Origin: Escherichia coli
GTDB lineage: Bacteria; Pseudomonadota; Gammaproteobacteria; Enterobacterales; Enterobacteriaceae
Strand: one strand, 5' to 3'
Assembly (NCBI RefSeq): GCF_003790525.1
Contig: NZ_CP033635.1
Length of the DNA: 64,000 bases
Shown: one piece after another, positions 51,001 through 57,000 of the stretch
Layout of the letters: every line of letters starts with the position of its first letter
Numbering within the stretch: the first letter of the stretch is position 1
Made by a program: the position numbers

Positions 51001-54000
51001 TGAACCAGCAAGTTGAAAAAGCGTTGGAGGATTTAGCAACCAATCCTTCCGACCCGAAATTCCTTGCCGAATATCAGAGTGCATTAGCTGAGTATACATT
51101 ATATCGAAATGCGCAATCTAACGTTGTAAAAGCGTATAAAGATCTTGATTCGGCAATCATACAAAACTTCCGCTAAACTGGATAAGGATTTTATTATGTC
51201 AGTAAGCAATATGCCACCTATTGATAGAGCTGAGCAATCAGCTGCTCATGAAATACAGCAAGCGAAAGTTATTGATTTAAATGACCGGGTTCTCAATCTT
51301 GATAACCCGGATGATAAAATGATCTCCGCTTTTGCTAACTATGCGGTACAAACTGAAAATTGGCAGCAAAATGCGTTACAAGCATTAAGGTCTGATAAAA
51401 AGGGGTTAACTCCTGAAAAATTATTAGTCTTGCAGGATCATGTGCTTAATTATAATGTCGAGGTTTCATTGGTGGGAACATTAGCAAGAAAAATTGTCGC
51501 TGCAGTTGAGACGTTGACTCGCTCATGAAATATATATCATTATTCTTGTTTATCCTGCTGTTGTGCGGTTGCAAGCAGCAGGAATTACTGAACCATCTTG
51601 ATCAACAGCAAGCTAATGATGTCCTTGCTGTTTTACAAAGACATAATATTAATGCTGAGAAGAAGGATCAAGGCAAAATTGGATTTTCAATCTATGTAGA
51701 ACCAACGGATTTTGCTTCTGCGGTGGATTGGCTAAAAATCTACAATCTCCCGGGTAAGCCTGATATTCAAATATCGCAGATGTTTCCTGCAGATGCACTC
51801 GTTTCCTCTCCACGAGCGGAAAAAGCAAGATTGTATTCTGCTATTGAACAGCGTTTAGAGCAATCTCTCAAAATTATGGATGGCATTGTTTCTTCAAGAG
51901 TACATGTTAGTTACGATGTTGATACTGGTGATAGTGGCAAAACTGCTTTACCAATTCATATTTCTGTACTTGCTGTATATGAAAAAGATATCAATCCAGA
52001 AATAAAAATAAATGACATTAAGAGATTTATTGTTAATAGCTTTGCAAGCGTACAATATGAGAATATTTCAGTCGTATTGTCAAAACGAAGAGATATTATT
52101 GAACAAGCACCAACATATGAAATTAACGAACCTATTTTTGCTTATGATAAGACTATGCCGGTTTCTATCTTACTTGCATTAATGTCCATTGCGACTTGCT
52201 GGCTGTTATGGAAGTACAGGGCTATTCTAACTAATTTAATCAGGTTAAAAAATAAGTAGACATATGAGAACGTTATGAATCTTGCCCTAAGAAAGATTAT
52301 ATATGATCCAATTAGTTATATTCATCCTCAACGAGTAAGTTGGAATAATGCACGTATTAGCAATCCGGTACTTAGATCTATTACCAATGAAATGATACTC
52401 CTACAGTACAATCTTTCAGTTGAGCATTTTAGTCTGAATAGTTCACTTATTTACTACATAAACAATTGGAAATTATTTCCATTGATCTGTTTACTCAGTG
52501 GTTGTCACTTTTATCGAGAAAGGTTTGCAGAACGCGGATTTTTTTACAAGGTTCCTGATGTGCTAAGGAATTATTTATCAGCGATACCGGTGGAAATAAA
52601 TGAAAAGGCACGATATAAACTTGGCATCGTTAACTATCAGAATATCATCACATGTGGTTTTTCAACGTTGTTGCCCTATGTAAGGCAACAACCGTTGGCA
52701 ATGCAGCAACGATTTAATTTATTATTTCCTGATTTTGTTGACCACATACAATTGCCGTTACCAGTTGCGTCTACTCTTTTGGAGAGAATTACATTTTATG
52801 CGAAAAAAAATAGAGATGAGCTTGATAAACTCTCCTGCAAATGGTGTTGTGATTAAAAGAATAATTTCTGATGGATTGAAAGAAATAGTTTCTCTAAAAG
52901 AACAGATCCTTCTTGAAACCACCGCAAAAATTCAGAGTATTGAGGAAAAGAGAGAAGAAAAAATTATTCAAGGTTATTATGATGGCTATGCGAAAGGCAT
53001 TATTGATGTGATGGATAATTTTATACCCTTGATAAGTTTGCTGAGCTCAGAATTAGAAAAAAACAGAGTAAACATGATAAACGATCTGAAGAGCATATTG
53101 TTAAAATCTTCAGAGGAAGTTGAAGTTTTTATCAAAATTTTTGAAAGTTGGGTAACAAAATTACCGTCAATATCAGGCCCTTTAAATCTCTATATACCTA
53201 CCAGTTTCAAAGATAAGTCTATTGAAGTAGAGTCATATTTTGTCGACAAGTCAATATGGAATGTCCATATTTCATATCATGATGACAAACGTTTTATTTT
53301 TTTTACAGATCAATTTATTGCTGAATTTAGTCCGCAGGAATTTGTGGATAATTGTGAGCAATATTTAATTAGCAATCACTGTTTTTCCCCTGACAAGGTT
53401 AATGAAATCTGTGAACATGCCAGACATTATTTAGTTGAAAGAATGTGTGAAATAGATTCTTTGGCTATGAATAATTCTGATTTGACGAACCCAGAGGACT
53501 TATAGATTACTGTCTCCGGTTTAATAACTTGAATATAATCTAATTCTAATATTTTAAACGCCTAATGATTTTTCAACACTGGTGTTATTCTGCTTACGCG
53601 AAAATTTTATTTTTAATTATATTTCATTATTATTTCATCAATGTATTCTTTGGATTTTGCTTATAATAATAATGGAAGGGATGATTATAAATGAATGCGT
53701 TATTGCATTTACACTCAGGATGAATATATGGGAAAGATTAAAATTGTAGTTTCAGATCAGCAGCCGTTTATGATTGATGGGATAATTGGATTTCTCGGAC
53801 ATTATCCCGATTTATATGAGGTTGTTGGGGGCTATAAAGATCTGAAGAAAGCTATAGCGGAGTGTAACAAATCTGCAGCCCAAATATTTATTTTAGGAGA
53901 ATTTGCAGGTGGAATGATGGGGTCCGAACTCATAAAATGGGTTAAATCGCATAAAATAGATGCTCATATTATTACATTTGTAGCAAAAATGCCGTATATT

Positions 54001-57000
54001 GATTCAATAAAATTGCTTGAAGCCGGTGCGAAAGGATGCGTATGGAAAACCAGTCACCCGGCGAAACTAAATCGCGCTATTGATTCGATTAGTAATGGTT
54101 ATACTTATTTTGATAGTGTACATATGGATTGTGAAAAAATATCTTCAAGATATTCCTCTGATAATCAACTTACAAATCGTGAGTCTGAAATACTACAACT
54201 CATAGCTGATGGAAAAACAAACAAAGAAATCGCTAATTTCTTGCAGTTAAGCAGGAAAACAGTCGAAACTCATAGACTCAATATCATGAAGAAATTAGAT
54301 GTTCACAGTGGTATCGAGTTGATCAAAACAGCTTTACGTATGGGTGTTTGCACTATATAAAAAAAGAGGCTTTAGGCTCATTTTGCTAAAGCCTTACGCT
54401 TGTCTATTTCATTAAGTCTGGTATATACAACATATATTTTTTTTGCATATTGCAGCCTCTTTTTTTGGTTTTCCATTGCAAAACCCGCGTTATATGTCCC
54501 CAGACATTGCCACGTTACCCCACAACGTGAAAAATGATTATATAAAATCTCGGTCCCTATTTTAATGTTCAGACAGGGGTTATCTAACAAATCTCGTTCA
54601 TCTTTTATTATTCCACGTTTTTTTAACATGGGAATGTGCATCTGGTTTATCTGCATTAAACCATAATCAAAACTCTTTATATTGTTTTTCTTATCCCTGT
54701 TCTTGCCGATGCTATCATTTTTTAAATTACTTTCAACAAGAGCGATAGCTTTGATCAAATTTGGTTCGATTCTGAAAATTGATCCTGCTTCATTAAAGCA
54801 AGCGCTACTGGCGAAAGACATTTTTGTAATTAATATAGAAAACATGAAGATGGATAAGATTTTAACTTTGGGTAAGCGCATATATTTTTATGTGTAGGAT
54901 TGAAGGAAAGGAACGAGATACTAATATATTCAGTATCTCGTTAATCATTTAAGTGGTCAATTATCTACCATTCCAGTTCATAGTAAGGAGAGATAGGATT
55001 ATCTTTCGAATACATATCATTTTGAAATGATGCCATCCATGTTGAAACTATAAATGCTTGTATTTGATCTGTATCAGTAGCACTGGTGGTGATGTGTTTA
55101 TCTAATGAAACGACTTCATCACCCGTTGCGGTTGCTATATTTAAACTTTGAGAAAAATTATTCATATTGATTGGATTAGTCATAAAGTTCCCTTTTTTAT
55201 TTGTCCAGGCCAATAGCCTATACACAATACTTTTTAATCTAGAGTATTTGATATATATTGCAATAAGGTAATTATCTTAGATGTTTTCATCTCTGTTGTT
55301 TACATAACCAGTTGCATACATCTAAACAATAAAATTGCGACAATAAAGATTTATCGCATACAAATTCTCGTTAGTTGCTTTAGTTTCAAAATGTTGTCAA
55401 TTATCACTCGATGGCTTTCACTCGAAGTTTCTTTATAGTAGAGTTTCATGTTGCTTTTGAGCGGGTTAGGCACATACATATCTACACACTCTTTTATCAC
55501 AACTGCTTTTCGTCTTCTGGGTTCGAGTTGTAGTGATTTGTCTATACAAATCCTTGCCTCTTCAATTCTTTCATTATGAAAATTGACAAGTGCTCTATAG
55601 TAGTAGAGAGAGGCTATATCAGTTGTGTGTATCTTAGCCTGTTCAAATAAGATATGAGATACTTTTGCCTGTCCAGACAGACCAGTTATCAGTCCCATAA
55701 TAGCTAAAATTTTTCCATCGACATTGGTTATGTCTGATACATAATGTAAAAGCTCTAATGCTTTTTGAGCAGCAAGTTCAAGTTCATACTTTCCATGAAG
55801 TGCCAAAGACATATGGCATTCCGCTAGCAGACAATAACATTCTATTTTTAGCGTCTGTATATCACTTTTATTTTGTAATCCATCAAATATAGCCATAGCC
55901 CTGTAAATGCTTTCAGGAGTAAACTCGTAAAGTTCTTTCTTACCAGCCAACAGTTCATCTGATAAATAATGATTCTTGTAACCTTGGTTCGGTTTAGCTA
56001 ATCTTACAGAACGCTCTGGATTATGTACCGTTTGAAGGATATTATCTATAATAAATTGTGATGTGTTATGTAGTTCATCAACAGGAAGATGATTACTGGC
56101 GATGAGGAAAAGATTTTTAGCGTCGATCAGTTCAATGTATAAAGTTTTCACCGCGTTATTCTGATTTATTCTTCCTGTAACGAAATAATCTGGCTTGAAT
56201 CTTCTCAAAAATGAATTTTGCGATATGTGATCATTACAAAAATTTGTCGCAGCCATCGGATAGGTATAAAGGCCATCGATTTTTTTATCCGAAATGTTTT
56301 GCACTAATTCCTGATTAAGTATTAATGGATCCAGGGTATTCAATGAAGTGGTGAAAGGAAATATAGCTATGGAATAGTCTGAAGTGTTATCTTCATTTAT
56401 TTTAGTTTTGAAAACCTGTCCACTGAAACGATAACCTTTCCGGTAGATTGTTTCTATGCAACGATCATAGCCAATTTTTTCAAAAATGCAGCGCAAAGAA
56501 TAGATACATCTTGTCAGGGACTCATCACTTACAATAATATTTTTCCATACTGATTCGATGATCATATCTTTCAGGACAACATGACCAGCGGATTCAAGTA
56601 ATACGATCAATACTCCTAACTCTTTCGGTGGAATATAAATCTGCTCATTTCCTTGAGTAAGAATTCCATCTTCCGTGAGCGTTAATCCCTCAAGAAAATG
56701 ATATGAGAATTTATTTTCTAAGTCCATTAGTTAACCTCTATGAAAAAATTGGTTTCTTGCATCCTGCATAAGCAATAGAAATTGTGGCTATTCATATTTA
56801 TGTGTCATTAATGCTACAGGAGTTTACATTCGACATATCTATGGTTGTGTTCACTAATTTATCTTAGGAATTCAGTGATGTAATCTGAAATAGCCTTATT
56901 CAATTTTGATAAAATAGATTGTTCTCTAACGCGTTGAAAAATAGTAATTTATAGTGTGTTCTTAACTGTTTTAAGATGTTGATTTAAGAAAACATAAGAG

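Follow-up and report, generated by a model that had tools for sequence, protein, structure and literature searches.

SsrB, a Salmonella regulator that joins a receiver (REC) domain to a LuxR-type helix-turn-helix, is encoded in a SPI-2-type type III secretion island and is paired with the kinase SsrA. A second group of regulators, the pseudo-receiver class that includes RitR, HP1043, ChxR and SecR, comprises orphan proteins that are computationally receivers with catalytic residues missing, most characterised examples belonging to the OmpR/PhoB family. Bacterial pseudo-receivers tend to carry a non-acidic second residue in the metal-binding acidic (DD) pair, to have β3-α3 and β4-α4 loops enriched in acidic residues, and to have lost the proline four positions after the acceptor (D+4) and small residues at the position after the conserved Thr/Ser (T+1) (PMC12632262). 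SecR, an RcsB-like, NarL-type member of the atypical regulators, has Arg as the second residue of the acidic pair; it is an innate dimer and binds DNA with no phosphorylation detected (PMC13199381). In VpsT and CsgD, a receiver-like N-terminal domain that works without phosphorylation is joined to a LuxR/GerE helix-turn-helix. Here we describe YgeK, the product of ygeK (etrB in enterohaemorrhagic E. coli, EHEC), a gene of the ETT2 type III secretion island that lies in a 64,000-nucleotide stretch of the E. coli contig NZ_CP033635.1 (hereafter the window, meaning that whole stretch). Alignments put a glycine at the position of the phospho-acceptor aspartate in YgeK, and we hold it most likely, with a probability of roughly three in four, that YgeK/EtrB is an orphan, SsrB-like transcription factor of the NarL/FixJ type whose pseudo-receiver leaves it active as made and controlled by dosage.

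Reviews describe EtrB as a NarL-family, SsrB-like regulator, and they report direct binding to the ler regulatory region, autoregulation and QseA activation, along with activation of the LEE via ler, repression of etrA and eivF, and a monocistronic etrB (PMC10877973, PMC8565820, PMC6393859). We found no mention of a missing aspartate in YgeK/EtrB in the EtrB reviews, in a 2015 survey of aspartate-less receivers or in a 2025 minireview of pseudo-receivers, a coverage outside which the primary EtrB paper (Luzader 2016) lies. Nor is YgeK among the characterised atypical regulators that the 2025 minireview discusses (PMC12632262).

The receiver active site of YgeK

An earlier sequence-only reading of the window had proposed from visual alignment that the YgeK receiver lacks the acceptor aspartate, citing a 15-residue stretch that corresponds to residues 51-65, and had named alignment to a profile hidden Markov model (HMM) as the check. 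We built a custom profile HMM from 38 canonical NarL/FixJ regulators. Its consensus 'kPDvvvlDiampklnG' aligned with 16 residues of YgeK without a gap and with top posterior probability throughout, which set Gly57 at the acceptor, with no Asp there; the region reads IFILG57E58F. Pairwise HMMER alignments likewise set Gly57 opposite the acceptor Asp of DesR ('cimDiempgktG'), RcsB ('vlitDlsmpgdkygdG') and LiaR/VraR ('ilmDlvmeemdG'), and a MAFFT alignment put it in the same column, so that the proposed absence of the aspartate is borne out by three kinds of alignment. A one-residue shift that would place Glu58 at the acceptor was ruled out, since the four hydrophobic β3 residues between 'PD' and Gly57 align gapless with top posterior probability. 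The glycine is not a sequencing slip: its codon, GGA, lies two changes away from Asp, and all alleles and family members that we examined carry the motif.

The substitutions extend beyond the acceptor. In the profile HMM alignment the second metal-binding Asp is replaced by Gln11, the conserved Thr/Ser by Val85 and the switch Tyr by Cys104. YgeK thus has replacements at three of five catalytic positions as well as at the switch aromatic, and only Asp10 and Lys107 remain.

The domain that carries these replacements is nevertheless recognisable as a receiver. Pfam Response_reg (PF00072) matched residues 6-118 at 31.2 bits (cut-off 30.2) over model positions 1-110 of 111, and an AlphaFold2 model built from a 55-sequence alignment (mean predicted local distance difference test score, pLDDT, of 83) showed a complete (βα)5 fold running from β1 (residues 4-9) through α5 (residues 111-122). 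In this model β3 covers residues 53-56, and since it ends at residue 56, Gly57 would occupy the structural acceptor site. The best Foldseek matches to the model were LiaR, RcsB, EvgA, VraR, DesR and NarL, and isolated REC structures superposed on the YgeK receiver with a root-mean-square deviation of 2.3-2.8 Å. The C-terminal domain also matched the structures of the EsrB and SsrB C-terminal domains. Compared with canonical NarL/FixJ regulators, YgeK has the (βα)5 fold, the Lys at the end of β5 and the GerE output domain, whereas the acceptor Asp, a complete acidic pair, the Thr/Ser and aromatic switch, and a partner kinase encoded nearby are absent. By profile and fold it is a receiver without a phosphorylatable Asp and without other catalytic residues, which is what defines a pseudo-receiver.

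Comparison with the described systems placed YgeK closest to SsrB, though outside its orthologue family. The SsrB family model NF011896 of NCBIfam was the best curated-family match of YgeK (138.6 bits, E 2e-40), but this score lies below the equivalog cut-off of 242, and YgeK is therefore not an SsrB equivalog. For residue comparisons we used a sequence that we take to be SsrB because it scored 385.7 bits on NF011896, far above the cut-off. Against this sequence, BLASTP gave 33% identity over the full length (E 5e-29). The two proteins share the same REC and LuxR helix-turn-helix architecture and both are encoded in type III secretion islands. However, where this SsrB sequence has D56 (aligned to G57), a DD pair, Thr/Ser and Tyr, YgeK has G57, DQ, V85 and C104, and unlike SsrB it comes without a kinase and in a SPI-1-type (prg/org/hilA-like) island.

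YgeK shares with the pseudo-receiver class its computational identity as a receiver, its missing catalytic residues and its orphan status. It differs from that class in having Gly at the acceptor rather than the commonly reported Glu, which in YgeK stands one position downstream, and in being NarL-type, whereas most characterised examples are not. SecR is the closest mechanistic precedent, and its Arg at the second acidic position is also found in the YgeK family. VpsT and CsgD are similar in their helix-turn-helix and phosphorylation-independent N-terminal domain, but VpsT ranked only fortieth among the Foldseek matches, at 16-18% identity, and the CsgD model matched only residues 113-193. 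YgeK is thus nearer to canonical NarL-type regulators than to VpsT/CsgD, which argues that its Asp was lost independently.

Conservation and selection in the YgeK family

Residue counts were made at the diagnostic columns for 17 members of the YgeK family and 38 canonical relatives. Asp occupies the acceptor in 37 of the 38 canonical proteins and in none of the 17 family members, which have Gly (15), Ser (1) or Thr (1) instead. The first acidic residue is retained in both groups (D12/E5 in the family, D30/E8 in canonical proteins), whereas the second is Arg, Gln or Lys in the family (R7/Q6/K4) and Asp in 37 canonical relatives. Immediately after the acceptor, the D+1 residue is Glu in 16 members and Asp in one, compared with I/V/L in canonical proteins, and D+2 is Phe in all 17 where canonical residues vary; the Pro at D+4, found in 37 canonical relatives, is lost. 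The Thr/Ser column (S30/T8 in canonical proteins) holds V/M/I/F, with Thr/Ser in 0/17, and the T+1 residue is acidic in 16/17. An aromatic switch residue is seen in only 3/17 members as opposed to 38/38 canonical proteins, while the Lys at the end of β5 is universal in both groups (17/17 and 38/38). Trp106 was present in 17/17 members. At the second DD residue, the β3-α3 and β4-α4 loops, D+4 and T+1, the family therefore departs from canonical proteins in the ways already described for bacterial pseudo-receivers.

At the acceptor site, a Gly, Ser or Thr precedes a Glu or Asp in each of the 19 full-length members of the family, and the motif is kept in two distant members, P0090 (GEF) and P0093 (GEL). 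Even among members whose overall identity is only 38-63%, the G-E-F motif, W106, K107 and some further positions stay fixed. Among 5.8 billion proteins, a word-indexed search returned a tight YgeK group at 48-100% identity, and then a gap down to canonical NarL/FixJ regulators at <=36%. When 1.84 billion cluster representatives were scanned with HMMER using a receiver profile of the family, three clusters were found at E <= 1e-30, followed by the more distant P0090 and P0093 and next by ordinary receivers. This deep profile search gave no bridging close relatives that carry the Asp, the nearest proteins, P0091 and P0094, being ordinary or tandem receivers. The metagenomic protein P0091 (765 aa), which is the closest Asp-bearing match to the YgeK receiver profile (E 1.7e-25), consists of four tandem receivers, all with the acceptor Asp, and then one LuxR-type helix-turn-helix.

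We also scanned 100,044 species-representative genomes with two degenerate peptide patterns, the E. coli representative apparently being without the locus, and recovered one member of the family, in Escherichia sp. E1V33, together with 79 canonical regulators, the latter at <=35% identity over full-length matches. A single member among so many species indicates that the family is narrow, being essentially Escherichia plus a few metagenomic relatives.

We then asked how the receiver-like part has evolved within E. coli. The ygeK coding sequences of the window and of O157:H7 differ by 11 synonymous and 2 non-synonymous changes, of which 7 synonymous and 2 non-synonymous fall in the receiver-like part. 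Across E. coli pairs, the ratio of non-synonymous to synonymous rates (dN/dS) for residues 1-125 was 0.03-0.11, a range that leaves out the near-identical pseudogene pair L008 and L010, which has zero synonymous differences in these residues. In cryptic Escherichia lineages, an independent pair of paralogues gave a dN/dS of 0.11 over the receiver-like part, with 33 synonymous and 18 non-synonymous differences, and of 0.04 over the rest of the protein. These low values suggest that the receiver-like domain is maintained by purifying selection. As judged from sequence, loss of the Asp is an old and maintained trait that is fixed in the family.

The sequence-only reading had further noted that no cognate kinase gene adjoins ygeK, and this applies well beyond the immediate neighbours: no histidine kinase is annotated in the whole 64-kb window, for which we used the RefSeq record of the near-identical E. 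coli genome GN03551 (99.98-100% identity to the window), and none was called in any of five related loci. These loci, some with members only ~40% identical to the YgeK of the window, keep the order ygeK-like gene, lytic transglycosylase (SLT) gene, HilA-like gene, and three of the five also have prgH-prgI-prgJ-prgK-orgA-orgB upstream.

The ygeK locus, its alleles and neighbouring regulators

The product of the ygeK open reading frame is identical to RefSeq WP_000516283.1, a 'LuxR C-terminal-related transcriptional regulator', and its start agrees with RefSeq and with the N-termini of all family members. YgeK of the window matches the O157:H7 protein (EtrB, z4176) at 208/210 residues, the differences being S66A and I69V, and the gene occupies the same ETT2 position as O157:H7 etrB. 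Upstream lie orgA/orgB-like genes, and on the 3' side, in convergent orientation, a lytic transglycosylase gene, ygeI and the HilA-like ygeH. Near-identity to EHEC EtrB and a place between the orgAB-like and SLT/hilA-like (ygeH) genes together assign ygeK to the etrB orthologue group. The island is AT-rich, with 32-38% GC as against ~50% in its flanks. Coordinates are collected in the table below.

Features of ygeK and its surroundings in the window
Feature	Position	Strand	Basis or comment
ETT2 island	~34370..60460		RefSeq annotation of near-identical genome
etrA-like gene	48983..49483	-	166-aa regulator
Shine-Dalgarno-like AGGA, 7 nt 5' of the ATG at 53728	53717..53720	+	direct sequence reading
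ygeK/etrB coding sequence, 210 aa plus stop	53728..54360	+	intact allele, equivalent to K-12 ygeL + ygeK
Pseudo-receiver (aspartate-less receiver) domain, residues 1-125, predicted (βα)5 fold	53728..54102	+	Pfam, AlphaFold, Foldseek
Asp10-Gln11, metal-binding acidic pair; first kept, second replaced	53755..53760	+	alignment, column counts
Cys46	53863..53865		
Codon 52, CAA (Gln); TAA in K-12-type alleles, giving ygeL + ygeK pseudogenes	53881..53883	+	allele comparison
Gly57-Glu58-Phe59, Gly57 at the phospho-acceptor column; G-E-F is the family signature	53896..53904	+	alignments
Val85, conserved Thr/Ser column, end of β4	53980..53982	+	profile HMM, column counts
Cys104-Val-Trp-Lys107, switch Tyr/Phe to Cys104, Lys107 kept	54037..54048	+	profile HMM, column counts
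LuxR/GerE-type helix-turn-helix, residues 147-201	54166..54330	+	Pfam GerE PF00196, E 4.9e-21
Cys208	54349..54351		
9-bp inverted repeat, just 3' of the ygeK stop	54367..54375 / 54386..54394		rejected as terminator
yqeH	62228..62860	-	209-aa product

The gene is not intact in all strains. In K-12 MG1655 a stop at codon 52 splits it into ygeL (codons 1-51) and ygeK (147 aa from Met64), and the avian pathogenic E. coli (APEC) literature likewise gives the first 63 YgeK residues as absent in K-12 (PMC8614350). The locus is present in 3509/5426 complete E. coli genomes (absent in 1917); searches designed to seed only across codon 52 gave CAA there in 1193 genomes and TAA in 2253, or about two thirds of locus carriers. 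The residue at the codon 52 column is Asp in almost all other family members and canonical regulators.

A promoter and terminator scan of positions 53450-54450 gave nothing above shuffled expectation, and the inverted repeat downstream of ygeK did not have the properties of a terminator. The ETT2 island of the window is partly eroded though ygeK is intact: a SpaN/EivJ-family gene is split, a YscQ/HrcQ-family gene and a GH15 gene are frameshifted, and an IS3 element lies within yqeK.

Two further LuxR/GerE-type regulators of the island were considered as carriers of related degenerate receivers. YqeH has a GerE domain only at residues 150-194, its ~145 N-terminal residues being without a Pfam match, and the etrA-like product has GerE at residues 94-145. 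Both were rejected, since their match to the YgeK profile is confined to the helix-turn-helix region and the N-termini gave none (hhalign).

A paralogue of the YgeK family (~51% identical, with the same G-E-F) occurs in cryptic Escherichia lineages outside any injectisome island (L005 10001-10633, L006 10001-10633 and L015 8001-8633). It is located between flhD and flhE-flhA-flhB-cheZ-cheY-cheB-cheR-fliE, and next to it are genes for a Rep3_N replication initiator and a bactofilin, along with a small Trans_reg_C gene. Such an arrangement could represent a flagellar locus, carried by an island or a plasmid, that has a pseudo-receiver regulator of its own.

Mode of action and alternative readings

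With the acceptor Asp, the second metal-binding Asp, the Thr/Ser and the switch aromatic all gone, YgeK cannot take a phosphoryl group at the canonical site. The catalytic replacements, their fixation across the family, the signature of purifying selection and the conserved orphan status together support the view, which the sequence-only reading had suggested, that YgeK is probably a phosphorylation-independent atypical regulator. We propose that the protein would be active as synthesised, the remodelled pocket holding its receiver in one conformation. The pocket elements that may do so through a charge network are Glu58 at D+1, the basic or polar residue 11, acidic residues of the β3-α3 and β4-α4 loops, and Lys107. 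Such a locked conformation would support dimerisation and DNA binding via the C-terminal LuxR helix-turn-helix, with output set by protein abundance. Dimerisation of NarL/FixJ regulators has been reported to occur through the α1-α5 face (PMC12632262).

Two observations weigh against this proposal. The most conserved part of the YgeK domain is its pocket-facing loops (P13, L14, E58, F59, K107, S109, P111), and the pocket may therefore still take an input rather than be locked. In addition, a secondary citation lists YgeK among the non-cognate regulators that BarA cross-phosphorylates in vitro (PMC11045786, citing Yamamoto 2005), which our proposal leaves unexplained.

The first of these points would fit a pseudo-receiver that is still a sensor, one whose input is redox state (as for RitR and HP1021), a small ligand or a partner protein, and which is hence switched rather than constitutive. 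A candidate partner would be RcsB, in a heterodimer of the kind that RcsA, BglJ and GadE form. The near-invariant or invariant residues (the seven pocket-loop positions just named plus W106) cluster on the active-site face, although such conservation is equally expected if the pocket only stabilises the fold. Cys46 and Cys208 are invariant in 19/19 full-length members, which raises the possibility of thiol-based control, and other pseudo-receiver regulators are known to be controlled by ligands or, through single cysteines, by redox state (PMC12632262). Cys208 lies within a conserved C-terminal 'GVCTI' tail that is absent from canonical relatives. SsrB, the closest characterised relative, also has a Cys at the Cys46 column in the sequence used here; SsrB being phosphorylatable, however, that column is not specific to the Asp-less state. 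On balance we regard a switched pseudo-receiver as rather unlikely. Slightly more doubtful still is the specific version in which the pocket has been rebuilt as a sensor of another signal (redox state via Cys46/Cys208, or else a small molecule or a partner, for instance RcsB), its rebuilt elements being the invariant Gly/Ser/Thr-Glu-Phe, a basic residue in the second acidic position, the acidic T+1, Trp106 and Lys107. If it were true, a host cue would act through EtrB directly on the expression of LEE and flagella, with no kinase involved.

The receiver-like region might instead be a functionless, decaying relic beside a helix-turn-helix that alone matters, with the Asp lost in the course of ETT2 erosion. 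ETT2 is indeed widely eroded, several apparatus genes of the window are frameshifted or split, the codon 52 stop is the commoner allele (2253 vs 1193), and K-12 keeps only the 147-aa C-terminal fragment. Yet the stop-codon alleles are real decay, unlike the Asp-to-Gly state: the receiver-like part of intact alleles has the low dN/dS given above, the motif positions are fixed across divergent members, and the AlphaFold model predicts a confident, complete fold. We consider a relic very improbable. Least credible to us is that YgeK is an ordinary regulator phosphorylated by a distant kinase, for example BarA, on a neighbouring acid such as Asp10 or Glu58. Asp stands at the acceptor in no family member, the second metal-binding Asp and the phosphoryl-contacting Thr/Ser are also gone, and Glu is not known to serve as the phosphotransfer acceptor in receivers. 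Retention of Lys107 and Asp10 speaks for phosphorylation, as does the general finding that orphan regulators mostly belong to the typical kind, with a kinase encoded elsewhere (PMC12632262), and the BarA cross-talk in the secondary citation points the same way. However, the K-12 YgeK fragment in earlier in vitro surveys would have been without residues 1-63 and with them the β1-β3 region, so that any BarA signal on it could not be at the canonical site.

Both the gene and the pseudo-receiver class were known; what our comparisons add, and what the sequences support, is the assignment of YgeK/EtrB and its small family to that class. Control of LEE type III secretion in EHEC has been reported for EtrB/YgeK, as has control of flagella, biofilm and virulence in APEC, where phenotypes of ygeK deletion, among them reduced flagella, have been described (PMC8614350). 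If YgeK is a pseudo-receiver regulator as we propose, the search for a cognate kinase would be pointless, and dosage control, dimerisation and the rebuilt pocket would be the useful targets. The natural Q52-stop alleles carried by most E. coli would serve as ready-made controls. More broadly, a compact enterobacterial NarL-type family with a G-E-F motif would join a class whose activation mechanisms have been described as largely unknown (PMC12632262).

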